Part shown: positions 48,148 through 63,207 of the stretch, one piece after another
Position numbering within the stretch: position 1 is the first letter of the stretch
Layout: every line of letters begins with the position of its first letter
Translations under genes and position numbers: made by a program
Assembly (NCBI GenBank): GCA_965207225.1
Contig: CBDBLV010000004.1
Location: forward strand, 800,001 to 864,000
Direction of reading: 5' to 3'
Length of the DNA: 64,000 nt
From: Dehalococcoidia bacterium
GTDB taxonomy: Bacteria; Chloroflexota; Dehalococcoidia; Plut-88900
Notes under the pieces: model-generated
Databases searched by the model: none
What the model was told of the DNA's origin: nothing
The model's input: only the letters and a program-made list of their open reading frames with translations

Positions 48148-49003
48148 GGCGTGTCGTCAAATTCGTGAGATGGTGTTAGCCTAGGCGCGTAAAGTTATAC
48201 AGCCCGAGGGGAAATGTGTCCACCATGACAAGAGCGCCCGCCCACCGCCGCCACGATATATCCGACAGAGTCTGGAACATCCTCGATCCGCTGCTGCCTG
48301 GGCGCAAAGGCAGCTTGGGACGTCCTGCCCAAGACAACCGCCGCTTCATCAACGCGGTGTTCTGGATAATCCGCACAGGCGCGCCTTGGAGAGACCTTCC
48401 GCCTGACTACGGCGACTGGAAGAATACCCACCGTCGCTACAGCCGTTGGCGGGATAGAGGTGTGTGGGAGGAGATACTGGATGCGCTGATGGACGAACCA
48501 GACTTTGAATGGCTGATGATTGACGCCAGTTATGTGAAAGTCCACGCACACGGCACAGGAGCGGAGGGTGGCAGTGAGGCTATCGGTCGCACAAAGGGGG
48601 TTGAACAGCAAGTTGCGCTTGGCGGTGGACGCACACGGTCTGCCAGTAAGGATGCTGGTCACTGCGGGTACGGTGGCGGACAGCAGCGAGGCGTTGGCGT
48701 TGATAGAGGGCATAGAAGCGGAACATCTGCTGGCGGACAAAGGATATGACAGCAATGCTATCGTGGAGGGAGCGTTGGAGCGTGGGATGAATCCTGTGAT
48801 ACCGCCCCGTAGGAACCGGCGTGAGCAGAGAGGATATGACCGTTATCTGTACCGGTTGCGGCATTTGGTGGAGAATGGGTTCTGTGAGTTCAAGGGATGG
48901 CGAGGGATAGCGACCCGGTATGCGAAGAAGGTGTCATCATATTTGGCAAACTGCCAGATTAGGGCAATACTCATATGGGCTAAAATCATTTGACGACACA
49001 CCC
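48147..49003 (+). mobile_element. IS5-family (IS427-like) element with a two-ORF transposase (48216-48749, 48568-48993)
   Basis: IR GGGCGTGTCGTCAAAT / ATTTGACGACACACCC, TA flanks; RTGAPWRDLP, MIDAS, ADKGYD and RHLVEN..WRGIATRYAK. Confidence 0.92.
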
Positions 49004-49601
49004 TAACAGCGTCGTCTCCTAAGTTGCGGACCGCTTTCGGTACGCTCTGCTCGTAGAGGCGACGCGCCACTTCGGGGGAGCGGAAGCCCAGGCCGCGCCC
49101 CCGAAGTCCGCGCGTCTGAAACAGGCGTCGCGTCTGCGGGGATAGATTATTCCACCCGCCAGTCGAGTTAGTGATGACTCCGCTCACCGGACGCGCCGCC
49201 ATCCCACTTGCGACGGAGCCAGTGTCCGAACCGGCCCCGTCGTTGATGCCGTTCACGACTTCCAATTCGGTTTCAGGCCATGCGTAGATCTTCTGGGCGA
49301 CAACGCTAGCGCCCTTAGATATCGTCTTGTCGCAGTAGCCGCACCGGACGTCATCTCGAGTCTTTTCCCGGGATGTGTACCAGTGATTGAGCCTCCGGGT
49401 GTAGCAGGCGCGGGATCTAAGTCCTTGCTTGCGTGTCTTCGCTTTGCACTCGGCGCACTCGATACAGGAATTCTCGTATTTGCGTCGCAGGAAGTCATCA
49501 GGCATCGCTGGAGGCATTTGCGATAGGCATCGGGATCCCACAGAGATCATGTGACTGCACTCCGTACAGCGGATGTCTTCCTCTGCGATTACTTGCCACA
49601 T
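49004..49601 (-). pseudogene. Cys-rich (CxxC) hypothetical protein truncated by the IS5
   Basis: CTEC, CIECAEC and CGYC motifs; the frame runs into the IS end at 49003. Confidence 0.6.
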
Positions 49602-49676
49602 GTCTGTTCCTTGTCAGAATCGGAATGTACGAATCATACCATATTCGGATGTGATGTAGGAGTCCCCACCTAGACG

Positions 49677-50360
49677 GTAACCGTCCCATAAGCAGTTGTT
49701 GAAGAAAAGAGTTGGGGAACCTGATAGGGTGTTGACACTCAACAAACAACTCCCGGAGGTTCCCCAGCCGATGCCAAGGGTACGACTCACGCTCCCACAG
49801 ATCAAGACCCGACCGGATTGTCGACCGAAGAAATGTCCACACTGCGGCTGCGGAGTCCTGCGCAAACACAGCGAGATCCCAAAGGCCCATCCAGAACTTC
49901 AGATTCCTGTGTACGGACTGCGGACGCGTGTTCAGACACTACCCCAAAGGTGTGGACAGACACACTCAGAGCAGGAGGCTTAGGGCGTTCGCCGCGCTGA
50001 GCTGGGCGTTGGGACTGCCGCTGAGGTCCGCAACCCACATCCTTGCCGCCCTCGGATGCGGCGTGTCGAGGATGAGTGTGTGGCGAGCCGTCCAGGAAGC
50101 GGGGGCGAACGCGCTAGCGGGTTTGCGCCGCGCCGCGCCCGGCAGCGTTCGAGTGATGGAAGCGGATGAGACGTATGTGAATCTCAAGGGGGAGAAGATC
50201 GTGGTCGGCGTGGTGGTGGACGCCGAGAGCGGTCGGTTTGTGGGGATGGACGTTCTTTCCAATCAGGATACGGCGGCGTTTCTGGAGTGGCTGGAAGGGT
50301 ACGCGCGCGAGTTCGGCGTCCAGACGCTGGTGACCGACGATCTTGCGACGTACAAGGTGG
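49677..50360 (+). mobile_element. Truncated, frameshifted third copy of the unclassified IS
   Basis: Left end GTAACCGTCCCATAAG; MPRVRLTLPQIK..CPHCGC, EADETY and LVTDDLATY. Confidence 0.8.
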
Positions 50361-50559
50361 TAAAAGTCCCTCAACCACTGTTCAGTCATCTCGTGGAGTC
50401 TCTCACCTATGCCGCTCGACGGCCTCGACCAATGTACAAAGTCGAGGCCAGACAGCAGTGAATAAAGACTGATGCCAACTAGAATCATGAGTCATTCGAG
50501 GCTTGGGAATCAGTGATTCCCCGCACCTCGGCATGGAGGGCTTGTCCACAATGGACCGA

Positions 50560-51978
50560 TCACTTGATGCGATTGTGATAGTGGTTCCAAAAAGTCTCGC
50601 GTAGCAAAGGGTCGCTCGTCTGTAGACGTACTACTGACTGTGTACTTTTTTCCTTAAGTACCAAGTACTTGGATCTAGGCTGAACGAGTTCGTACTCAAG
50701 GGTGTTCGTAAAGATGCGGTGTAGTAGATCTGTCACCTGGTCTGTGGAGGTGGCCACCATCGCTCCGACAGCTACGCCCGTATCAAAATTAATCAGACGG
50801 GACAGAGGATGTACATCGCGGAAGAAATCACTTCTGAATTCCTCGTTCGCGAAAATGATGACGGGCTTCCCTAGACTCAGCGCCATGGCAGCCTCAGCAT
50901 CCTTGCCGTAGCTATCACGACTACCAGCATTAAGAATGAGAGCCTTTGCACACTTCACCATCAGACACTCGACTATCCCCTTGTCCTCGTGGTGCTCTGC
51001 GGCACTAAGCGTGGGGTCAAAATACCGGAGCTTCAACGATTGCAATTCGTAATCGTCAAACACCTTTTCACAAAACTCTGCCATGTCGCGGAAGTCGTCC
51101 CGGGTACGCATTGAGGTTGCTATATATACATCCAAGTCGCCTACCATTGACAAGTACATATGGGTATTCGAAAGGGCTGCTCTCCGGGCGCGGGTGAATT
51201 CTTGAGCGACGCGGCGAATCTTCTCAACTAGGCCGTCTTCATCTTCTAGGACCTCTTCCATAAAGTCATCCGCCGAGAGTTGCAATTGCGGCTGAAGATG
51301 TGCGTATTGTGTTTTTGCATAGTCGCCAGTTAGTAGCTGTCTAGCGGTCAATGGAACCCCACCATCGGTGCGGTGTTTTCGGAATAGGTCGATCATGACC
51401 TGCTCTATCTGGTTAGCGTCTCCTTTTCCCTCGACAAGCTCGAACGACTTGCAAGCCATCTCAGATATCAGATAGCGATTGTCTTTGGCGATCTGTGAGA
51501 GCAGAAGAGCTTCACCACGTTCTTTCAGCCCAGTAATTCGGCTGGAGTCGAAGAAGGCATGCAGGTCAGTCTCGGACAGTTGACGGAGCCTTTGATAGGC
51601 GGTCCTGATGCTCCCGAAGTACAGCAGGGCGTCCACGTAAAACCTATACAAACCCCAGTAGAGCTGGTCGATAGACTGAATGTTCTTCGATCCAGGCCAA
51701 CGTTCGTCGAAGCAGGGAACGCGGCAGACATCGTAGGGATGCTCCGGAGCGCTAAGCCAATAGTAAGTGAACAGCGGTTGTGATACTGGTGCTTCATGAG
51801 CCAAAGTCAGCAGCTGATTAAGCCGCGCCCTGCTGAGCGGGTGCGTTTCGAGATCCGCTAGTGCATTGAAGACCTCGTCGGGCGTCTCTGGCCGCAGCCA
51901 ACTGTCGAGGCCACCAGTTCCACCTTGAAATAGCTGAAACTGCTCAAGGATTTGTTCCTTTTTCACTGTCGTCGACAT
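50560..51978 (-). CDS. Hypothetical protein with C-terminal nucleoside 2-deoxyribosyltransferase-like domain
   Basis: DVYIATSM..YFDP..DSYGKDAEAAMALSLGKPVIIF resembles the NDT signature (G-x3-E-x3-A-x3-GKPV). Confidence 0.65.
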   Translation of the reverse strand: MSTTVKKEQILEQFQLFQGGTGGLDSWLRPETPDEVFNALADLETHPLSRARLNQLLTLAHEAPVSQPLFTYYWLSAPEHPYDVCRVPCFDERWPGSKNIQSIDQLYWGLYRFYVDALLYFGSIRTAYQRLRQLSETDLHAFFDSSRITGLKERGEALLLSQIAKDNRYLISEMACKSFELVEGKGDANQIEQVMIDLFRKHRTDGGVPLTARQLLTGDYAKTQYAHLQPQLQLSADDFMEEVLEDEDGLVEKIRRVAQEFTRARRAALSNTHMYLSMVGDLDVYIATSMRTRDDFRDMAEFCEKVFDDYELQSLKLRYFDPTLSAAEHHEDKGIVECLMVKCAKALILNAGSRDSYGKDAEAAMALSLGKPVIIFANEEFRSDFFRDVHPLSRLINFDTGVAVGAMVATSTDQVTDLLHRIFTNTLEYELVQPRSKYLVLKEKSTQSVVRLQTSDPLLRETFWNHYHNRIK

Positions 51979-52340
51979 CAGGCAGTCATTTCCCCTTCTC
52001 AGTTTCCACGCGTACTCTCGCGGGAGCACATCCAATATATGTATCTATGTAGGCTCGTGCATAGTCTCACATAGGGTTCAGTGATTCTTCGTGATCTCGC
52101 GAGGGTTGCCCACAAGCGGAAATCAGTGTCTCCCGCGAGCTTCGGTTGGTTTCTCAGTCACCAAGCTAAGGAGGATGATACCCTAGTCTGGAGACTTTGG
52201 AAAGCTCAGTGAGAGCGGGATTTCAGTTTGAACTTGGGGCGCTGACTAGGCACTCATAGAATGCCGACCCTTATTGTTACCAGCCGTCGAGCCTTCTATG
52301 GCTGAAAGAACTCATAACCTCCCTTGACACCTCGGATTCA

Positions 52341-55300
52341 TCAGGGCTGGCTGAATGCCCAGTCCTTAGACAGAACTTCGGCTTGCTCCAAGACGGTCTG
52401 TGTCGCTTTCTCCTGCTTGTCCGGCGGGTAGCCGTGTTTGCGGAGGATGCGGCGAACCAGCCTCCGCAGATTGGCGCGGACGTTCTCCCGCAGCGTCCAG
52501 TCGATGGTGACATTGTTCCGGACCGTTTCGACGAGCTGGCGGGCGATGTCTCGGAGAGCATCGTCGCCGAGCTTCTGTACGGCGCTGTCGTTCGTTCCCA
52601 GCGCGTCATAGAAGGCCAGTTCGTCTTCCGACAGTCCCAGTCGTTCGCCCCGCGCGTGGGCCTCTCGCATCTCCTTTGCGAGAGCGATCAACTCCTCGAT
52701 TACCTGAGCCGCCTCTATCGTGCGGTTTTGATAGCGGCGCAGCGTCTGTTCCAGCATCTCTGCGAAGGAGCGGGCCTGCACCACGTTCTTGCGGCGGCGA
52801 ATGCTCAGCTCGCCCTCGAGCAGCTTCCGGAGCAGTTCGACCGCCACGTTGCGATGCTGCATCCCTCTGACCTCGGCCAGGAATTCGTCCGACAATACCG
52901 AGATGTCCGGCTTGCGCAGACCAGCGGCGTCGAATACGTCCATCACTCCCTCGGCGGCGACGGCCCTGGATATGATCTGTCGCACGGCGAGGTCAATGTC
53001 CTCAGCCAATCGAGCGGCCCTTGGAGCCTGTTTCGACAGCGCGGCGCGTACAGTCTGGAAGAAACCCACGTCATCGCGTATTCGCATGGTCGCCGGGTGT
53101 GGCACGGAGAGCGCGAAGGCTTGCGACAGCTGCCGGACGGCGTTCAGGTAGCGTTCCTTCCCGTCCTCCTGAGCCAGTATGTGTTCTTGAGCTGCGGGCA
53201 GGAGGGACAGGCGTTCCCGATGAGATCCCGTCTTCCAAACACCCCAGTCGAAGCCGTGGAACAGGCGACAGCAGATCTCATGCTTTTCCAGCATCGCGTC
53301 GACCGCCTCTTCCTGGTCCAGCGCCGTACTGCCGCTACCGCCGCTTTCGGTGTACGTCGCCAGAGCCTGTTTCAGGTCTTGCGCCAATCCGAGGTAGTCC
53401 ACCACCAGGCCACCGGGCTTGTCCCCAAACACGCGGTTGACTCGCGCTATCGCCTGCATAAGCCCGTGGCCACGCATTGGCTTGTCAACGTACATGGTGT
53501 GCAGGCTGGGCGCATCAAACCCCGTGAGCCACATATCGCGCACCAGCACGATCTTAAACACGTCGTCCGGGTCACGGAAACGTTGCGCCAGCGCCTCGCG
53601 CCGCGCCTTGTTCCCAATGTGCGGCTGCCAACCCACAGGATCAGACGCCGAGCCGGTCATTACGACCTTGATCTCGCCCTTGCCATCATCGTCGTCATGC
53701 CAGCCGGGACGCAGCCGGACCAGTTCGCGGTACAGCTCGACGCAGATGCGGCGGCTCATGCAGACGACCATCGCCTTGCCTTCCAGCGCCTCCCGGCGGC
53801 TCTCGAAGTGGGCAACGATGTCCTCCGCGATCTGCTTGACCCGCGCGGGCGCGCCGACGACCGCTTCCAGCTGCGCCCACTTGGTCTTGAGTCGCTCCCT
53901 GCGTTCTATCTCCTCGCCCTCGGTCGCTTCCTCGAAGTCGGGGTCTATCTTCGGCCTCTCGCGCTCGTCTAGAGCGAGCTTGGCAAGGCGGCTTTCGTAG
54001 TAGATCGGCACCGTTGCGCCGTCCTCGACGGATCGCCGGATGTCGTAGATGCTGATGTAGTCTCCGAACACGGCGCGGGTGTTGGCGTCCTGGATCTCGA
54101 TGGGCGTGCCGGTGAAGCCAACGAACGATGCGTTGGGCAGCGCGTCTCGCATATGTCGGGCGTATCCGTCGATGAAGTCGTACTGGCTGCGGTGCGCCTC
54201 GTCCGCGATTACGACGATGTTGCGCCGCTCCGACAGCGTGGGGTGCGTATCGCCGCGCTCCTCTGGGAAGAACTTCTGGATGGTGGTGAAGACCACGCCG
54301 CCGGCGTTGACCGATAGCTTGGCGCGCAGGTCGGCGCGGCTCTGCGCCTGCGTCGGCGGCTGGCGCAGCAGATCCTGGCAGCGAGAGAAGGTGCCGAATA
54401 GCTGGTCGTCCAGGTCGTTGCGGTCGGTGAGGACGACGACGGTCGGATTCGCCATCGCCGGATCGCGGATGATGGCACCGGCGTAGAACGCCATCGTGAG
54501 ACTCTTTCCCGAACCCTGCGTGTGCCATACGACCCCGATGCGGCGGTCGCCCGGCTCTCCGCCCGGTCGTCTCGACTCGTACTCGTCGATTCTCGCATCG
54601 CCTACACGCCCAATACGCGCCGCCCTAAGCGTCTCCTCTACGGCTACGCGCACGGCATGGAACTGGTGATAGCCCGCCATCTTCTTGACCGGCGCGCCGC
54701 CCCCATCGTCATCAAACGCGATGAAGTCTCGGATCAGAGAGAGAAAACGGCTCCGCTCAAAGACGCCTTCGAGCATCACCTGGAGCTGGGGGGTATGAGA
54801 GTCTGCCAGCGCCTCGCCGGTGACGGTTCGCCAGGGCTTGAACCACTCCTTGCCCGACGTGAGAGCGCCTACCCGCGCTTCGATGCCGTCCGACACGACC
54901 AGCGCCTCGTTCATGGAAAACAGCGTGGGAAGCTCAGACTTGTAGGTTTGGAGTTGGTTCCATGCCGTCCAGATCGTCGCGTCCTCGTCCGCGGGGTTCT
55001 TCAGTTCGATAATGCCAAGGGGCAGGCCGTTGACGAACAGCACCACGTCCGGCCTTCGGGTGTTTCGGTCCTCGGTGACGGTGAACTGGTTGACGGCGAT
55101 CAGGTCGTTATTGGCGGGGTTGTCGGAGTCGATGACTCGGACCTGGTTGCCTCGTAATCGTCCATCCGCATCCTGGTACTCGACCTCCACGCCGTTGACC
55201 AACATCCTGTGGAATGCCCTGTTGCGAGCTTCTAGGGTTGAACCCTGGGGCCGGGTCAGCTTGCGGTAGGCATCTTCCAGCGCCGACGCAGGCAGCGCAG

Positions 55301-55478
55301 GGTTGAGTGTGGCTACAGCATCCCGCAGCCGACGCTCCAGCACCACTTGGCCGTAATCGGTGCGCTCGTCATTGGAGGTCTCGGGAGCGATGTCGGGGCC
55401 GTGTGCCGTCTGCCAGCCAAGACCCTTCAGCCAGTCAAGGGCAGCCTGCTCGACTTCGGCCTCAGTGATAGTAGTCAT
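52341..55478 (-). CDS. hsdR: Type I restriction endonuclease subunit R
   Basis: [47 protein letters not shown] and QAIARVNR. Confidence 0.96.
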
Positions 55479-55987
55479 TTCATCCAGTCCACGACGCCAG
55501 CGATTGCCAGGATAACCATAACCGTCAGACCCGCATGAAGCCCAGCGAAGAGGATAGGTATCCACCGTTCGCTCTTCGACACAGCACGATACGCCGGACC
55601 TTGTCCCTCCTCAGCCAATCGCCACTCATGCTTGTACATCGCCACTGGAAGATGTTGCTCGAACTCGTGAATCACCTTGAACTTGACTGTGTTCAGGTCT
55701 GCGTGTGACTTGATGATCAGATACCAGAGCAGGGACACGGGAATCCCTATAATGGGAATCAGCAGCGTCCAGTAGCTCTGGCCGAAGTTTGCGGACTGCA
55801 GCCCATACAGCGCAACCAGCGCGGCGTTAATGGTCAGCAGGTAGCGGTTTGAGGTGACACGCCGTGAGCTAACATTCTCAGCAGATTGAACGTATAGCTT
55901 GTACTGCTCCAGCAGGTCTGCCTTAAACGACTTGCCGTAGGATTCTTCGGTCCTAGGAATCAATGATCCGCACTTCTCGGTACCCAT
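55475..55987 (-). CDS. Small multi-TM membrane protein (resembles the RipA/octameric membrane protein family)
   Basis: [21 protein letters not shown]...LN..KF.VI..E..LP and E.WIP.LF; three hydrophobic helices; coupled to the TIR gene and hsdR. Confidence 0.7.
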
Positions 55988-55989
55988 GC

Positions 55990-56379
55990 CTACCTCGGAC
56001 TAGCGATGAGTTCTTTCAGGGTGGGCCAAGTCCAAGGATGCATCACCTTCTTCTTCGGCGCTGTGTTCGGGCGGGAACATTGCCCTTGCCTGCGGCCCTT
56101 CAGCAAGAAGTAAGGCTTCTTCTCTTCCCGAGTGATGGCAACCTCGCCTGCTACTCCGCTGGCCCTGTGCGTACGCCGTCCGCAGATAACGATGACAAGG
56201 TCGCACCTGCGTATCCGAGACCGAACCTCATCCCGCCATTTTTCGTCGATTCGTCCGTACACAGACTCATCCTTTATGCTGAATGGCGAGTCTGACCTCT
56301 CAGCTTGGGCGACCAAATCGCCCCTCAGGTCCTTGTCGTTGTCGAAGTCAAAGCTGATGAATACGCTCTTGGTGGTCAT
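55990..56379 (-). CDS. TIR-like domain protein (MTH538/DUF1863, ThsB-like)
   Basis: VFISFDFDND, D.S....W...RSRIRRCD.VIVICG.T..GV..EV (putative catalytic Glu) and KPYFLLKGR. Confidence 0.85.
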   Translation of the reverse strand: MTTKSVFISFDFDNDKDLRGDLVAQAERSDSPFSIKDESVYGRIDEKWRDEVRSRIRRCDLVIVICGRRTHRASGVAGEVAITREEKKPYFLLKGRRQGQCSRPNTAPKKKVMHPWTWPTLKELIASPR

Positions 56380-56461: not shown

Positions 56462-57502
56462 CTACGGTGTATTGGGTGCATCGAAGTCAATCTCAAGCAT
56501 ATGAAAGCCTTTCTGCTCAAGAAAGTCGGCAACCGCCTGTTGATACTCGGGCATATACTCAATGTCAACGACTCCCGCAAGTTCCGTTGCTGCATTTGTA
56601 AGGAGAATCACAGGCAACGTTATGGTTTGGTCTCCCTGTCGCTGATCAATTGGCGTCAGCGCCCAGCTGCGCCCTTGAAATCCATGTGCCATTGATATCC
56701 ACCGGGGCGACTTATCCAAGCCACCATCGATTACCACATGCTGCAGCTCCGAATCGTATCCTGGGGCTATGAGACCGTGTTCATTTAGCCGATTTAGGGC
56801 AGTGTAACTTAAGCCATATTCCTTTAGAGAGTTATTTGCGGCTCGACCATCCAAGGAAATGACAAATTCATTTCCTGCTCGTTTTGCACCACCTCCCCTT
56901 AGACCAATCTGAGGTGTCATCCTAGCTGAGCACAATCCTCTAAAAAGTCTAGCCGTTGCTCTATCGAGATTCTTGAGGATGCTCATAGTTCTAAATGAAG
57001 TGCTCCCGGGTCTTTCTACTTCACCTGCAAGGATCTTGCCCCAGAGCTGTTGCATCTCTTCAGAAGATACGTCTTGCACATCATTGAAGAATCGCGCTGT
57101 CCAGTCGTGATCAACGTCGTGGTCTTGGACCTCCCTATCTCCAAGCTCCAAGGCGGCCTGCGCAACCACTGATCCGATGTTGGCCTGACGCTTCTCCTCT
57201 CGGAACTGCACTCTTTGCTCTATGAGATCTCCTATTGTCACTTCCCCTTGAAGTGCTGCTTGAGGAGAGATCAGCTTTGATCGCGCCTCCACCTGCGCCG
57301 CGGCAATGATCTGTATGGACGTTGCGCGACCCTGAGTCAGGATTCGCTGTGCCTCTGCTTCCCCTTCCGCAGCTATGGCTCTTACCTCAGCGTCACGTCG
57401 CGCTACCATGCGAGAGAAGAAGAAGCTCGCCGTGCTACCTATTCCACTCGCCGTATAATCGATTAGCTTCTCAATAGCCCGCACATTTACCTTGATATCC
57501 AT
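56462..57502 (-). CDS. DUF2806-family protein
   Basis: EEKRQANI..V..A, VDHDW..RFF..QDVSSEEMQ.LWGKILAGEV..PGS.S.RT..LKNL. Confidence 0.82.
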   Translation of the reverse strand: MDIKVNVRAIEKLIDYTASGIGSTASFFFSRMVARRDAEVRAIAAEGEAEAQRILTQGRATSIQIIAAAQVEARSKLISPQAALQGEVTIGDLIEQRVQFREEKRQANIGSVVAQAALELGDREVQDHDVDHDWTARFFNDVQDVSSEEMQQLWGKILAGEVERPGSTSFRTMSILKNLDRATARLFRGLCSARMTPQIGLRGGGAKRAGNEFVISLDGRAANNSLKEYGLSYTALNRLNEHGLIAPGYDSELQHVVIDGGLDKSPRWISMAHGFQGRSWALTPIDQRQGDQTITLPVILLTNAATELAGVVDIEYMPEYQQAVADFLEQKGFHMLEIDFDAPNTP

Positions 57503-58818
57503 TACGTCACCCGCACTCCCCCCGACACCAACCCCGGCAGCAGTGCATCTCGCTGGGCAGCAAGGACCAGTGACTCTTGGCGGTTGAACTCGATCTGAGC
57601 AAATAGAGGACTGACCAAGGCTTTTAACTCTGCCCATATCTCTGCTGGAGGGTACGGCAACAAGTAAGGGGCCAACGCGTCAACCTGAACTCTCTGCCGT
57701 CCGGACGTCCCCGTCATGCTTTGGATGGCGTGCTCTCGGAATGCGGCGTCACGGGCCAAGAGGTATGTGTATTCAGATGGAACAGGTGGAATCGCCCGCA
57801 TCACAATGAATTCGGTCGAGCCCCAACCCGCCGTACCTGCCGCCAGCGACTGGACAAAGGCCGTCTTGCCGTTTTCCAAGCAGGGAGTAATCCGTGCAAG
57901 GAGCGTATCGCCGTTGCGAAAGCGGGTACCGGATTTGAACTCTCGCAATATGGGAGAGCTTGGACCAGACCCAGACGTTGGGAGGGATGCCATGTCAAGG
58001 TAATGAGCCACGGTTCCCCGCTTCATTGGCTCAGGGGGGTTTAGCTTCACTACCTCCTCCAGTGCTTTTACCTCCCACTCCTCCGGGATCTCCCCCAGCT
58101 CCGAGTCCACCAGCCGGTCCGGGAACAGGTTGTAGAGGTCGGAGGAGAGGCCGGGCAGCGACTCGCCCCGGTGATAGCGGCCCTCTATCTTGGCCCGCAC
58201 AGGGTCGAAGTCTACGAACCAGGACTTGAACAGCGTCCTGGCCATCTCCTCCAGCGTTTCGTTCATCCGCCGGTTCAGCTCGATCTTGTCATCCAGCGTG
58301 CCGAGGATGCGGGCGATGGCGCGCTGTTCGGAGAGGGGTGGGAGTGAGAATATATATCGTGAAACGTGTTCCCAATCGGCTCGAGGCATTCTTGTACCTG
58401 TTGAGCCGGCCATGGCGAAGTCCACGAACTCATGGGATGCCATGCAGTAGTGAAGATAGCCTTGTTCAACTCCCTTCTTTGCGCGAACTACCCAAATGTC
58501 GGTCGAACACAACCCATTTGCAGGTGCACGGACTACCTTTCGAAAGTATGGACGTAGCTTACCGAACAAGGTGTCGCCGCACTTAAATCGCGCCTTTGTA
58601 CTGGTTACATCGGTAGCTGTTCCTTGTCCGACTAGGGATAGGGTGCCTTCTCCTATGTGCTCAAGACCTATGTAAAGAGCATCATCCATTTCAGAAGGGG
58701 ATACAGTATCCCGAATCAACTCCGCGCACTCCTCTAACGTCGCCTTGCGCCATCCGTCCGCCGCCCGGTTCAGAAACTGTGGCGCAATACGTTTGTCTAG
58801 ATCAGCCATTGCTGCCAT
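57502..58818 (-). CDS. hsdS: Type I R-M specificity subunit S
   Basis: Two TRDs and the conserved LPPLSEQRAIARILGTLDDKIELN and QRDALLPGLVSG. Confidence 0.94.
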   Translation of the reverse strand: MAAMADLDKRIAPQFLNRAADGWRKATLEECAELIRDTVSPSEMDDALYIGLEHIGEGTLSLVGQGTATDVTSTKARFKCGDTLFGKLRPYFRKVVRAPANGLCSTDIWVVRAKKGVEQGYLHYCMASHEFVDFAMAGSTGTRMPRADWEHVSRYIFSLPPLSEQRAIARILGTLDDKIELNRRMNETLEEMARTLFKSWFVDFDPVRAKIEGRYHRGESLPGLSSDLYNLFPDRLVDSELGEIPEEWEVKALEEVVKLNPPEPMKRGTVAHYLDMASLPTSGSGPSSPILREFKSGTRFRNGDTLLARITPCLENGKTAFVQSLAAGTAGWGSTEFIVMRAIPPVPSEYTYLLARDAAFREHAIQSMTGTSGRQRVQVDALAPYLLPYPPAEIWAELKALVSPLFAQIEFNRQESLVLAAQRDALLPGLVSGGVRVT

Positions 58819-58820
58819 CT

Positions 58821-59132
58821 CTAAAACTCCACATCGCGGGGTCTCAAAGGTATCCGCTCAAATTCGAAGTCTTCGGAGCCGCCTTTGGGTATTGCCAGCG
58901 GGTGCTCCGCGAAGCTCGGTATGTCTTCCTGTGTGGGGGCGCTGTCTTGGATTAGCTCGGCGGTCGTCTGATGATCGTAGAGACGCGCGTATTCGTCCGC
59001 CGACAGCACGACGACGGCGGATGCGCCATCGCATGATACGCGCTGCGGTTCGCCGGTTAGGGCGGCGTCAACTATGGCGGTAAAGCTATTCTTGGCATCC
59101 TGCAAAGTCCAGTCTGTCACTATATCCTCCAT
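58821..59132 (-). CDS. Phd/YefM-family antitoxin
   Basis: WTLQDAKN.F..VDAA..GEPQ.V..VVVLSADEY. Confidence 0.8.
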   Translation of the reverse strand: MEDIVTDWTLQDAKNSFTAIVDAALTGEPQRVSCDGASAVVVLSADEYARLYDHQTTAELIQDSAPTQEDIPSFAEHPLAIPKGGSEDFEFERIPLRPRDVEF

Positions 59133-59177: not shown

Positions 59178-59588
59178 CTACGGTTGGCAAAGCGGGGGAC
59201 CTAGCACGTCTCGGCCGTCGAACTTGGCGCCGGGCTTCTGAAGCAGTATGTCGAGGCGGATGTCTAGCAATTTGTGGATGGCGCGGGCCTGCGGTACTGT
59301 TAGGTTTCGCTTGCCTTCCATCACTTCGCAGACTTTCGCATCGGTGCCGATGATTTGGATGAGGTCATGGGGCGTCAGATACCGGTCGTCCAGCGCGCGC
59401 TCGATGGCGGCGGCGGCGGTAGGAAAGCCCATCGGATAGCGCTTGTCTTCATATCTCACGACCATTTCCACTAGCGCTTCACATTCTTCACCCTCCGGTG
59501 TGCTCGGCTCTGCGGCGAATATCTCGTCGATCCGCCCAAGCGCGGCGTCGAGGTCTTCTTCGGTGAGAATTTCCGTGACAGCTACCAT
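59178..59588 (-). CDS. higA: HigA-type HTH antitoxin
   Basis: ALGRIDEIF..TPEGEE..YED..DL..IG..V.EVM.GKR.LT; downstream of higB. Confidence 0.85.
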   Translation of the reverse strand: MVAVTEILTEEDLDAALGRIDEIFAAEPSTPEGEECEALVEMVVRYEDKRYPMGFPTAAAAIERALDDRYLTPHDLIQIIGTDAKVCEVMEGKRNLTVPQARAIHKLLDIRLDILLQKPGAKFDGRDVLGPPLCQP

Positions 59589-59590
59589 AT

Positions 59591-59884
59591 CTAAACCTCC
59601 CCAGCGTCTATTCTCTCATATTCGGAGTGGGTTCCAATGAACCGGATATAGACGCGTCTCGCTCTGTAATTCACTCTTGCGACCAGTCTGTATCTGTTCC
59701 CCCTGATCCTGAACACCGCGCGGTCCGAACCTACGATACTGGCGCGTCGGTATCGCTGCAATAGGTCGGCAGGGGAACGCCAAGTCTCTTCGCTGACCCG
59801 TTGGTGCCAATCGTTCAGGGCATTCTCCGCGTCTGGGTGTCTCCGCCAAAACCTCTGAAGTGTACGTTTGGAAAAGATTCTCAA
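59591..59884 (-). CDS. higB: HigB-type mRNase toxin
   Basis: MRIFSKRTL..FW..HPDA, VFRIRGNRYRL and YIRFIGTHSEY..ID. Confidence 0.92.
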   Translation of the reverse strand: MRIFSKRTLQRFWRRHPDAENALNDWHQRVSEETWRSPADLLQRYRRASIVGSDRAVFRIRGNRYRLVARVNYRARRVYIRFIGTHSEYERIDAGEV

Positions 59885-59974: not shown

Positions 59975-61525
59975 CTACCTACCAAACCCCAGCCTCGCTA
60001 GGTTCTTCTCTATCTCGGCATCGAGCCGTTGCGTCTCCGCCCGCTGCTCGCGCCACTGGGCGGATAGGCGCGCCATCTTGTCGGCGAAAGGTTCGCCGTC
60101 GTCGGGCTGCGGCTCTACGCCGACGTAGCGGCCCGGCGTCAGGACATGTCCGTGCCTGCGTATCTCATCGAGTGTCGCGCTCTTGCAGAAGCCGGGGACG
60201 TCGGCGTAGTCATCTGCGTTCGGCTTGCCACCCCAAGCATGGTACGTGTCGGTGACGCGGGCGATGTCGTCGGATGACAGGTCCCGGCGGGTGCGGTCTA
60301 TCATGTGTCCCAGCTTGCGGGCGTCTATGAACAGCGTCTTGTCGGGTCGCGCTTCGTAGTCGGCGGCGCGTCCCCGACGCAGGAACCAGAGGCAGGCGGG
60401 TATCTGGGTGGATCGGAACAGCTGTCCCGGCAGGGCGACGATACAGTCCACAAGACCAGCCTCGACGATGTTCCTGCGTATCTCGCCCTCGCCTGACTGC
60501 GCGGACGACATGGAGCCGTTGGCGAGGACGAAGCCCGCCACGCCTCGCGGAGCGAGGTGGTAGAGGAAGTGCTGCACCCACGCGAAGTTGGCGTTGCGCG
60601 CCGGCGGGATTCCGTACTGCCAGCGCCTGTCGTCGCGCAGCCTCGCGCCGCCCCAGTCGGAGACGTTGAAGGGCGGGTTGGCCAGGATGTAGTCGGCGCG
60701 CAGGTCGGGGTGGCGGTCGTTGTGGAAGCTGTCGCCGCGCTCGATCCGTCCCACGATGCCGCGGATCGCCAGGTTCATCTTCGCCATGCGCCAAGTGGTG
60801 TAGTTGGACTCCTGGCCGTAGATGGAGATGTCGGCCCTTGCCCCACCGCCGTTGCCATTGCCGCTGGCGTGGGCGCGTATGAACTCGTCGGACTGTACGA
60901 ACATACCGGAGGAGCCGCAGCAGGGGTCATAGACCCGCCCGCGATACGGCTCTATCATTTCGACGAGGAGGCGCACGACTGAGCGCGGAGTGTAGAACTC
61001 GCCGCCCTTTCGTCCCTCGGCAAGCGCGAACTGCTCCAGTAAGTACTCATAGACGCCCCCAAGCGTATCGTTGGCGCGGGCGTCGGCCCCGCCAACCTTG
61101 ATGTTGCTGACCATATCAACAACCCGACCCAACCGCTCCTTGTCCAGTGCGGGGCGCGCGTAGTCCTTCGGCAGCACATCCTTGAGCGCGGGGTTGTCGC
61201 GCTCGATGGCGGACATTGCGTCGTCCACCGCCCGGCCTATGGACGGCTGGCGCGCCTGCGACTGGAGCTTGCTCCAACGGGCTTCGGGAGGGACCCAGAA
61301 GATGTTCTCTGCGATGTACTCGTCCCGGTCCTCGGCGGCCTCCTCGCCCCATTCGGCCAGAACCTCGGCGCGACGCTCCTCGAAGGCGTCCGAGATGTAC
61401 TTGAGAAAGATGAGGCCGAGGACGACGTGCTTGTACTCGGCGGCGTCCATGCTGCCGCGCAGCGCGTCCGCCATGCGCCACAGTTCTGGCCTGAAGTCTG
61501 CTTCGGCTGTTTGGGCGGTGGTCAC
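59975..61525 (-). CDS. hsdM: Type I R-M methyltransferase subunit M
   Basis: [34 protein letters not shown] and NPPF. Confidence 0.96.
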
Positions 61526-62109: not shown

Positions 62110-63207
62110 CTACGCGGTAGCCTCATCCGGCCGCTTCAGCATGGCGGAGCAACCGCGCACGACGACATGCTCCACAGACACCCGTCCCCGGCCGTCGTAC
62201 CCGGCGCGGAACGCGTACTCCACCGTGGCCCCCTCCGGCGCCCGTCCGCCGGTCCGCACGGCGCGTCCGCCGTCCCCGCGTCCGGGCCCTCCCGCGCCGC
62301 GCACCACCGTCCCGCTGCGCTCGCCCTTGCGCCAGCCCAGCACCTTCACCTCTGCGGGCATCACCCGCTCAGCCGGAGTCGGCTGGAACAGCGCACGGTG
62401 CAGCCTCTTCAGCGCCCCCGGCGACGGGCTGCGCCGGCCGGTCATGATCTGCGAGAGGTGGCCTGAGCTGATGCCGGCCCTCCTCGCCACCTCGTTCTGG
62501 CTGATGTCGTGGGCGTTCATCCGCTCCCACATGGCATCCCGGTCCACACCGGCGCACCGCGCGGGCGCCACCTCCACCGGACCCTCGAGGGCAGCCTCGA
62601 CCCTTGCCTGGACCCCGGCGCTCATGTTCCTGTGTCCCCGGGAGACCTGTATGAGGTATCCGTAGGATATGCCTACCTTCTCTGCCAGGTCCTGCATGGT
62701 CATTCCCATCTCGCGTGCGCGCTCCCTGATGTAGCTGCTCTGACCGCCTGCCACGCTCCCCCTGCGGTTGGCGCGCCGCGCGGGCGCTATCTTCACCGGC
62801 GTTCCGAGCGCGGATTCTACCCTTGCCCGCACCCCGGCGCTCATGTTCCTGTGTCCCCTGGAGACCTGCAAGAGGTATCCGTAGGAGATGCCCACTCTCT
62901 CCGCGAGGTCCTGCATGGTCATACCCATCTCGCGAGCGCGCTCCCTGATGAAGCTGCTCTCTGCGGTAACGACCTCGCGCTGTCTGTGGACGGTTCCCTG
63001 TCCCGGGACCTCTCCCAGCGCCGCCATCGCCTTCTCCCGCATCGTCTGCGACCACGGCCTGCGCCCGGTCGCGACCTGCGACAGGTAGCCCGCCGACACG
63101 CCCATCAGAGCCGCCAGGTCCTTTATGGTGAGACCGCGCCTCCTCGCCGCCGCCCTGAGCTCGCTCTCGCGTACCGCCGTCGTGGTTGTCATCGTTGCCG
63201 TCGTCAT
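62110..63207 (-). CDS. Protein with four tandem XRE-type HTH domains and a small C-terminal beta domain
   Basis: LAALMGVSAGYLSQV, 2x MTMQDLAE.VGISYGYL.QVSRG and SQNEVARRAGISSGHLSQI; AGGAGG RBS. Confidence 0.85.
   Translation of the reverse strand: MTTATMTTTTAVRESELRAAARRRGLTIKDLAALMGVSAGYLSQVATGRRPWSQTMREKAMAALGEVPGQGTVHRQREVVTAESSFIRERAREMGMTMQDLAERVGISYGYLLQVSRGHRNMSAGVRARVESALGTPVKIAPARRANRRGSVAGGQSSYIRERAREMGMTMQDLAEKVGISYGYLIQVSRGHRNMSAGVQARVEAALEGPVEVAPARCAGVDRDAMWERMNAHDISQNEVARRAGISSGHLSQIMTGRRSPSPGALKRLHRALFQPTPAERVMPAEVKVLGWRKGERSGTVVRGAGGPGRGDGGRAVRTGGRAPEGATVEYAFRAGYDGRGRVSVEHVVVRGCSAMLKRPDEATA

Follow-up and report, generated by a model that had tools for sequence, protein, structure and literature searches.

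A ThsB-like TIR gene and an 8xMP-family membrane protein gene form a conserved, probably Thoeris-like pair carried in a type I restriction-modification operon of a Dehalococcoidia bacterium

Introduction

A type I restriction-modification (R-M) operon of a Dehalococcoidia bacterium carries, between the genes of its specificity subunit (hsdS) and restriction subunit (hsdR), a small gene for a TIR-domain protein followed at once by a small gene for a membrane protein, which raises the question of what such a pair does there and whether it depends on the R-M enzyme around it. The operon lies in a stretch of 64,000 nucleotides (nt) of the GenBank assembly GCA_965207225.1 (contig CBDBLV010000004.1, positions 800,001 to 864,000), the whole of which is called the window hereafter. 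A sequence-only reading of this DNA, made without database searches, had proposed a non-canonical Thoeris-like module leading from the TIR protein to a membrane pore, co-expressed with the R-M enzyme and possibly guarding it. The comparative analysis reported here indicates that the two genes probably form an autonomous Thoeris-like signalling defence module, in which the membrane protein, of the Pfam 8xMP family, would be the effector reading the TIR product.

Results

A ThsB-type TIR protein and its membrane partner

The TIR protein of 129 amino acids (aa) was assigned to the ThsB type by the Pfam family ThsB_TIR (E=4.5e-6, 27.4 bits against a cut-off of 21.2). Its AlphaFold2 (AF2) model, with a predicted local distance difference test (pLDDT) score of 87.4, had as top fold match in the PDB a B. 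cereus TIR (8fz9, E=4.4e-6, TM-score 0.70), several ThsB structures being found as well and the TIRs of SARM1 and MyD88 ranking lower. A sequence search against PDB chains gave no match, and in PADLOC-DB v2.0.0 the protein matched only ThsB1 (E=9.8e-4) and PDC-M50B (E=0.017). The candidate catalytic glutamate, E79 (codon 56145-56143), is invariant in 30 of 30 homologues and in all 76 TIRs that abut an 8xMP gene, and profile alignment places it on the glutamate of B. cereus ThsB that we take to be the catalytic E85. The family assignment, the fold matches and the conserved E79 therefore agree with the ThsB-like TIR and candidate catalytic glutamate of the sequence-only reading. Since 421 homologues of the TIR protein and 1053 of the membrane protein were found, neither open reading frame (ORF) is a chance one.

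The membrane protein of 170 aa had been left unclassified; it belongs to Pfam PF24838, the 'octameric membrane protein family (8xMP)' (E=1.2e-36), with a score of 126 bits against a cut-off of 30 and coverage of profile positions 1-135 of 136, and representative clusters of this family numbered 2399 at E<=1e-3. Three hydrophobic uncharged stretches were recognised in it (residues 49-67, 73-92 and 142-166), two of which pass a Kyte-Doolittle value of 1.6 while the first is weaker, and the AF2 model (pLDDT 89) shows each of them as a helix, so that its earlier description as a protein with three transmembrane (TM) helices is reasonable. The layout predicted from model and hydropathy runs from a cytoplasmic N-terminal helix through TM1 (49-67), a five-residue loop and TM2 (73-92) to a conserved cytoplasmic segment of 49 residues (93-141) and TM3 (142-166). 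Among 56 diverse members, R43, L113, P114, E121, W122 and E140 are invariant, and the invariant or near-invariant residues lie at the cytoplasmic membrane boundary: S40, R42 and R43 before TM1; S94, N99, K102 and F103 after TM2; E110, L113 and P114; and E121 and W122, then E140 and P144, before TM3. Conserved residues within the membrane are N54 of TM1 and G81 of TM2.

No SIR2, SLOG, Macro or caspase domain was detected in the membrane protein by the Pfam scan, in keeping with the earlier remark that no ligand-binding domain is visible in it. PADLOC-DB v2.0.0 (0 matches) and NCBIfam had no match for 8xMP, and neither did a sequence search against PDB chains. Its look-alikes in the ESM Atlas outside its own family reached a best score of 0.81; a lead to PycTM, from an Atlas cluster at 0.75 with PycTM in 11% of its members, was too weak and was dropped. 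In a Pfam scan of 20 longer 8xMP representatives, a check that was not exhaustive, only 8xMP itself was matched, and six longer representatives inspected for a TIR fusion had none, carrying extra hydrophobic or low-complexity N-termini instead. The literature search brought up no relevant paper on the 8xMP (PF24838) family.

Conservation of the pair in genomes and plasmids

Scanning one genome per species with a 15-sequence 8xMP alignment gave 79 loci, distributed over Chloroflexota, Latescibacterota, Alphaproteobacteria, Nitrospirales, Gemmatimonadota, Planctomycetota and Acidobacteriota, with one metagenome-assembled genome (MAG) labelled archaeal. Under a strict rule, 75 of these loci have a TIR ORF adjoining the 8xMP ORF in the same orientation; a looser count of 77 adds a locus with a degraded TIR (L060) and one with a split 8xMP (L076), leaving as exceptions L065 and L068, the latter with a ThsB-type TIR match 2.6 kb upstream. 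The spacing between the two genes is -4 to +9 nt in 67 of the 70 loci with a placeable start. More than one strong TIR match was present in 12 of the 79 loci, mostly as a second TIR gene just upstream.

Two loci deserve separate mention. In L044 (6336-8489) two complete TIR/8xMP pairs stand in tandem within one hsdS-hsdR interval. L072, on a contig labelled as a Thaumarchaeota MAG, has the order hsdM-hsdS-TIR-8xMP-hsdR and an 8xMP protein 62% identical to that of the window, for which transfer or a binning error is possible.

Plasmids yielded more distant 8xMP homologues (25-45% identity), in 34 records. A TIR-domain protein is encoded directly upstream of 8xMP in 12 of the 16 plasmid loci inspected, five of them haloarchaeal and the bacterial ones from Polaromonas, Haematospirillum, Paenarthrobacter, Synechococcus, Novosphingobium, Clostridium and Rhizobium. 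The search of a phage collection returned a single match, a plasmid record also included there. The coupled pair is thus conserved across genomes, as its spacing and its recurrence in genome and plasmid loci attest, and such coupling is what a sensor and effector of a Thoeris-like module would be expected to show.

8xMP behind TIR proteins of differing architecture

The genes that precede 8xMP are not all of the small ThsB type. On a plasmid of Rhizobium leguminosarum (L096, 131-4238), only 2 nt separate an 8xMP homologue from the preceding gene, which encodes a 1215-aa TIR-NB-ARC-WD40 (NLR-like) protein. At L065 (5204-8519), 8xMP comes 6 nt after a TIR-APAZ gene and a gene for a short prokaryotic Argonaute (pAgo), a pair SPARTA-like by PADLOC; no small ThsB-type TIR is present at L065, the sole genome locus without any ThsB-type profile match. 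A Clostridium plasmid shows the gene order caspase-TIR-8xMP-TIR, and in Paenarthrobacter a TIR and caspase pair lies 3 kb from the TIR and 8xMP pair; caspase genes were found beside TIR/8xMP in these two plasmids only, and the window operon has none. 8xMP is therefore found repeatedly in the effector position behind TIR proteins of differing architecture.

Many bacterial TIRs are NAD+-depleting effectors, including the TIR-APAZ proteins of short-pAgo systems. The roles could accordingly be reversed, the TIR protein being an NAD+-depleting killer and 8xMP activating it by contact, as a sensor or scaffold in the membrane, for example upon injection or envelope stress, with no diffusible messenger. 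The position of 8xMP after the TIR-APAZ/pAgo pair of L065 fits this arrangement, as do its lack of a recognisable ligand-binding domain and the tight translational coupling, which suits a stoichiometric complex. The arrangement is nevertheless rather unlikely, given that the TIR belongs to the small ThsB type and that tandem extra TIRs per single 8xMP (12 of 79 loci) and operons shared with caspase-type Thoeris effectors resemble several sensors serving one effector. The correlation between TIR and 8xMP distances is moreover weak (0.37, see below), which is ill-suited to a co-evolving interface, though this point is indirect. The multi-TIR and caspase-sharing operons thus fit signalling better than reversed roles, while the pAgo-linked locus fits reversed roles.

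The surroundings of the pair are rich in defence genes also where R-M genes are missing. Among the 25 loci without a flanking hsd gene, 18 were scanned and 12 of them had PADLOC matches within 4.5 kb, and the defence neighbours outside R-M comprised a cyclic oligonucleotide-based antiphage signalling system (CBASS) operon, which in L056 directly precedes TIR-TIR-8xMP, as well as AbiE, HEC-05 and PD-Lambda-2. A role other than defence, either as an addiction or toxin-antitoxin-like cassette stabilising the R-M locus or plasmids or as a housekeeping membrane function, would account for the occurrence of the pair among toxin-antitoxin genes (Haematospirillum plasmid), for the toxin-antitoxin-like pairs common in the same R-M interval and for those 8xMP homologues that have no TIR neighbour. 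Such a role is made highly improbable by the glutamate kept at the catalytic position in 76 of 76 TIRs, by the repeated association with CBASS, pAgo, caspase-Thoeris, AbiE and R-M genes, and by a patchy spread over phyla and archaea that is typical of defence genes.

The hsdS-hsdR interval as a cargo site

In 44 of the 79 genome loci the pair stands between an upstream hsdS and a downstream hsdR of the same strand, and at least one same-strand hsd gene flanks it in 54; in the other 25, no such gene was found within about 8 kb, some of the contigs being short. Where hsdR lies downstream (46 loci), it directly follows 8xMP in 20 and is separated from it by 0.5-6.5 kb of other genes in 26. Among the 12 plasmid pairs, 11 have no adjacent hsd gene.

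For the other contents of the interval, 137 further ORFs of the 44 loci were scanned against Pfam. They include a Gabija-like pair of OLD-ATPase and UvrD, Abi_C, DUF2806, SIR2_2, Fic, AbiJ_NTD4, DUF4238, DUF3800, Mrr_cat and DUF4365, many pairs of DUF433 with DUF5615/PIN-like genes and others, toxin-antitoxin-like pairs being common; many of the 137 ORFs had no Pfam match. Because so many unrelated defence families occupy it in relatives, the interval is a variable cargo site. The position of TIR/8xMP in the operon is consequently best read as that of cargo, read through with hsdR, and not as evidence of functional dependence. Type I R-M operons with defence genes inside them have already been described, according to the available text of PMC11411939 (on TgvAB) and 10.1101/2024.01.29.577857.

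These counts bear on the earlier suggestion that the pair guards the R-M enzyme. In the manner of PrrC/EcoprrI, the assembled type I enzyme would silence the pair, and a phage anti-restriction protein that disables HsdR or HsdM would trigger a second, abortive layer. Translational coupling to hsdR in the window would suit a guard, and so would the 44 loci enclosed by hsdS and hsdR, the 20 of 46 in which hsdR comes directly after 8xMP and the tracking of hsdR distances by 8xMP distances (Spearman 0.64); PrrC itself is reported, in the available text of 10.1101/2024.01.29.577857, nearly exclusively within type I R-M. A near-obligate embedding of this kind was not found for TIR/8xMP, given the 25 genome loci and 11 plasmid pairs without hsd genes and the other cargo between 8xMP and hsdR in 26 of 46 loci. 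A cargo site fits better than a dedicated partnership, relatives having Gabija-like, Abi_C, SIR2, Fic, AbiJ and DUF433/PIN-like genes in this interval too. Since many TIR/8xMP pairs are free-standing, the guard model is unnecessary; it is given little probability here, and the suggestion was not upheld.

Remnants of hsdR beside the cassette

In related type I R-M operons, remnants of the start of hsdR, encoding residues 1-22 up to 1-58, border cassettes of TIR/8xMP and of other cargo (Table 1). Such remnants stand directly after 8xMP and before more cargo and a full hsdR in L001, L013, L036 and L058, and after 8xMP in L030, where no full hsdR is present in the stretch examined. Others lie within about 250 nt before the TIR gene (L004, L012, L013, L015, L017, L031, L044 and L055), and more than one match to the hsdR N-terminus occurs in 15 of the 49 loci that have any. 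A TIR homologue from the databases, P0129, is annotated with an hsdR-start remnant fused to its N-terminus. The block of 90% identity between the window and L001 extends about 49 nt into hsdR, and the window has no hsdR remnant upstream of its TIR gene. Judged from these sequences, it looks as if each cassette arrived with its own hsdR 5' end and displaced the old one.

Layout of the window operon and neighbouring genes

All genes of the operon region are on the minus strand (Table 1), in the transcription order hsdM, HigB-like gene, 136-aa ORF, Phd/YefM-like gene, hsdS, DUF2806 gene, TIR, 8xMP and hsdR, and hsdM, hsdS and hsdR were recognised by Pfam and PADLOC as the three genes of a type I R-M system on one strand.

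Table 1. Features of the R-M operon region (coordinates in the 64,000-nt stretch) and hsdR-start remnants of other loci
Feature	Position	Strand	Basis
hsdM, methyltransferase subunit	59975..61525	-	Pfam N6_Mtase and HsdM_N; PADLOC MTase_I E=7e-206
HigB-like / PD-Lambda-2_A gene, cargo between hsdM and hsdS	59591..59884	-	Pfam, PADLOC; PD-Lambda-2_A E=1.3e-36
136-aa ORF	59178..59588	-	PD-Lambda-2_B profile match at positions 4-123 of 402 only
Phd/YefM-like gene	58821..59132	-	Pfam, PADLOC
hsdS, specificity subunit	57502..58818	-	Pfam Methylase_S; PADLOC Specificity_I E=2.2e-112
DUF2806/TIGR03899-like gene, separate cargo	56462..57502	-	Pfam DUF2806 E=8e-33; weak Abi_alpha E=0.002
ThsB-like TIR gene, 129 aa	55990..56379	-	ORF; Pfam ThsB_TIR; PADLOC ThsB1 E=9.8e-4; AF2; PDB folds
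8xMP-family membrane protein gene, 170 aa	55475..55987	-	ORF; Pfam PF24838 E=1.2e-36; AF2; hydropathy
ATGA junction, 8xMP stop / hsdR start	55475..55478	-	sequence
hsdR, type I restriction subunit, 1045 aa from ATG at 55478	52341..55478	-	Pfam HSDR_N, SWI2_SNF2, T1RH-like_C; PADLOC REase_I 1106 bits
hsdR-start remnants	L001 8510-8602; L013 7402-7581, 8510-8590; L012 7371-7532; L017 7459-7581; L030 8510-8644; L058 8526-8699; and others		

The stop codon of the TIR gene (TAG, 55992-55990) is followed by a gap of two bases (55989-55988) and the ATG of the 8xMP gene (55987-55985). At 55475-55478 the plus strand has tcat, the reverse complement of a minus-strand ATGA in which the TGA of the 8xMP gene overlaps the hsdR ATG, and hsdR read from that ATG begins M-T-T-I-T-E. 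The ORFs, the 2-bp gap and the overlap with hsdR were thus as the sequence-only reading had given them, and so was the nesting of the pair between hsdS and hsdR, except that the pair is not alone there, the DUF2806 gene preceding the TIR gene. The likely ATG of that gene at 57502 overlaps the hsdS TAA (TAATG). No terminator-like site was found on the minus strand in a consensus scan, which is weak evidence since site counts did not exceed those of shuffled sequence; sites in the promoter and terminator scans alike were no commoner than there. With the 2-nt gap and the ATGA overlap, this agrees with a pair packed into the type I R-M operon. The GC content falls to 0.49-0.55 in the DUF2806, TIR and 8xMP genes, most of hsdR being at 0.61-0.66 and most of hsdM at 0.62-0.67.

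Further genes of the operon and its surroundings were noted. The DUF2806 gene, which is translationally coupled to hsdS and has no PADLOC match, is possibly further defence cargo, and its DUF2806/TIGR03899-like family occurs in the same hsdS-hsdR interval of L009, L015 and L017. The 136-aa ORF looks like a truncated remnant of PD-Lambda-2_B, full-length versions of which are present in L023 and L034, and the Phd/YefM-like antitoxin gene directly upstream of hsdS has no recognisable toxin partner adjoining. Just downstream of hsdR, a 491-aa ORF (50560-52035, minus strand, GC about 0.51) had no match in Pfam, PADLOC or NCBIfam; in the Atlas it most resembles unnamed clusters (0.93-0.95), and a weak lead (0.82) points to nucleoside 2-deoxyribosyltransferase-like proteins. 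ORFs on both strands at 48843-50488, beside the operon, resemble fragments of transposases or insertion sequences, their translations being judged by eye. Upstream of hsdM, a 365-aa ORF (62110-63207, minus strand) contains, by its translation, several near-identical helix-turn-helix-like repeats.

Discussion

By analogy with characterised Thoeris systems, the 129-aa TIR protein would detect infection and its conserved glutamate would convert NAD+ into an ADP-ribose-derived signal. 8xMP would be a ring-forming inner-membrane effector with three TM helices, and the TIR product might bind its Arg/Lys-rich juxtamembrane surfaces, probably between protomers. Binding would open or remodel the ring, leading to a breach of the membrane and to arrest or death of the infected cell. 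The domain identities, the glutamate at the catalytic position, the conserved tight pairing, the several TIR architectures and the defence neighbourhoods are direct observations, and by this comparative evidence the Thoeris-like reading is well supported.

A number of points weigh against it. The 79 genome loci come mostly from one class and are close relatives, so that counts made on them are not independent events. No TIR adjoins 8xMP in 4 of the 16 plasmid loci (Leptolyngbya, Acaryochloris, Streptomyces and Embleya), and the family is thus not strictly bound to TIRs. In the two actinomycete plasmids, those of Streptomyces and Embleya (L089, 1243-2944; L095, 1646-2968), the gene upstream of 8xMP encodes a DUF4328 membrane protein in place of a TIR, and part of the family may accordingly work in another context. 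The fold search of the 8xMP model against the PDB (Foldseek) yielded no similar solved structure (best E=0.94), and because this adds to the lack of a ligand-binding domain, the proposed binding site is conjecture. Assembly as an octamer is likewise conjecture, drawn only from the Pfam family name, behind which no paper was found; the score of a four-copy oligomer model (alignment A2), 0.25 where 0.42 was the mark, speaks neither for nor against it.

The inheritance of the two genes belongs to the same side of the balance. In a Mantel test of pairwise distances across 42 loci (Spearman), 8xMP correlated with hsdR at 0.64 and with the TIR at 0.37. TIR and 8xMP are therefore not simply co-inherited, their correlation being moderate and below that of 8xMP with hsdR; TIR genes seem to have been exchanged relative to 8xMP, and the association with R-M may partly reflect common descent of whole operons. 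A cassette evolving independently of the R-M backbone, which had been expected, was not borne out by this test. In contrast, the window cassette shares 90% DNA identity with that of L001, against 78% for hsdR and 81% for hsdM.

A broader proposal is put forward more tentatively, namely that 8xMP constitutes a further Thoeris type: a widespread (2399 clusters), ring-forming family with three TM helices that would read the TIR product at the juxtamembrane surface, in place of a dedicated sensor domain, and would be usable behind ThsB, long archaeal TIRs, TIR-NB-ARC-WD40 and TIR-APAZ/pAgo. Being usable behind such different TIR proteins, 8xMP would answer a generic TIR product. In this Chloroflexota operon family, moreover, the cassette seems to carry its own hsdR 5' end with it as it moves. 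Cargo stacked and split by hsdR-start remnants would represent a route by which defence genes accumulate in a single R-M operon, and no description of such a route was found.

What makes the system interesting is chiefly how large and far-reaching the 8xMP family is, and that it pairs with TIRs of NLR-like and Argonaute-linked kinds. Should 8xMP be a Thoeris effector, TIR-based immune signalling gains a large family spread widely over bacteria and haloarchaea, and these pairings would tie signalling Thoeris to systems usually deemed plain NAD+ depleters. With only 129 and 170 aa, the pair would also be a minimal model in which to study the reading of an NAD-derived messenger by a membrane ring that has no sensor domain. 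In addition, the type I R-M operons of uncultured Chloroflexota are illustrated as collectors of defence cargo.

Comparison with known systems

According to the available text of a 2025 preprint (10.64898/2025.12.03.692087), there are Thoeris types with membrane effectors (DUF2270, SLATT, ion channel) that have no classical ligand-binding domain, and 29 putative effector types are listed, including 'a variety of proteins with TM-spanning helices'. The window 8xMP did not match the TM-only effectors named in that text (DUF2270, SLATT, ion channel); 8xMP may be among the 29 types, or may be the type IX effector ThsJ, the domain of which is unnamed there. The label 'non-canonical' given by the sequence-only reading has to be revised, TM-only Thoeris effectors having been in print since late 2025.

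The closest likeness is to type V Thoeris (ThsB and ThsF; DUF2270, PF10028), which in the same text also consists of two genes, for a small TIR and a small three-TM protein with no classical ligand-binding domain. ThsF is described there as forming, in models, a closed ring of identical protomers with positively charged pockets between them, the presumed site of the signal, and as responding to 3' cyclic ADP-ribose (3'cADPR). The window effector differs in being 8xMP, DUF2270 having matched 0 of 56 members at E<=10, a threshold at which HMMER filters drop most weak matches. Type V has been tested experimentally, by that account, whereas TIR/8xMP is known here from sequence only.

Type I uses the SIR2-SLOG protein ThsA, and the window partner contains neither SIR2 nor SLOG. 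Type II (ThsB and TM-Macro) is alike in its TIR signal and in a membrane-anchored effector thought, in the available text of 10.64898/2025.12.03.692087 and PMC11204291, to disrupt the membrane; no Macro match was obtained for the window protein or for the 56 8xMP members. The caspase-like protease effector of type IV has no counterpart in the window operon. The SLATT effectors of type VII and of CBASS are alike as small helical multi-TM proteins with an N-terminal cytoplasmic helix, and weak SLATT_1 matches were seen in 2 of the 56 8xMP members (best E=0.0029) and none in the window protein.

In its genomic setting the pair resembles PrrC/EcoprrI, TgvAB (Vibrio VPI-2) and the 'guilt by embedding' candidates, which, from the available portions of PMC11411939 and 10.1101/2024.01.29.577857, are likewise same-strand cargo between hsd genes and probably co-transcribed; PrrC is a guard and TgvAB acts independently of HsdR restriction. 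Finally, the window differs from short-pAgo systems of the SPARTA type (TIR-APAZ and pAgo) in having no Argonaute and a stand-alone TIR of the ThsB type, and the presence of 8xMP directly after such a pair in L065 suggests that this membrane protein can couple to TIR-APAZ as well.

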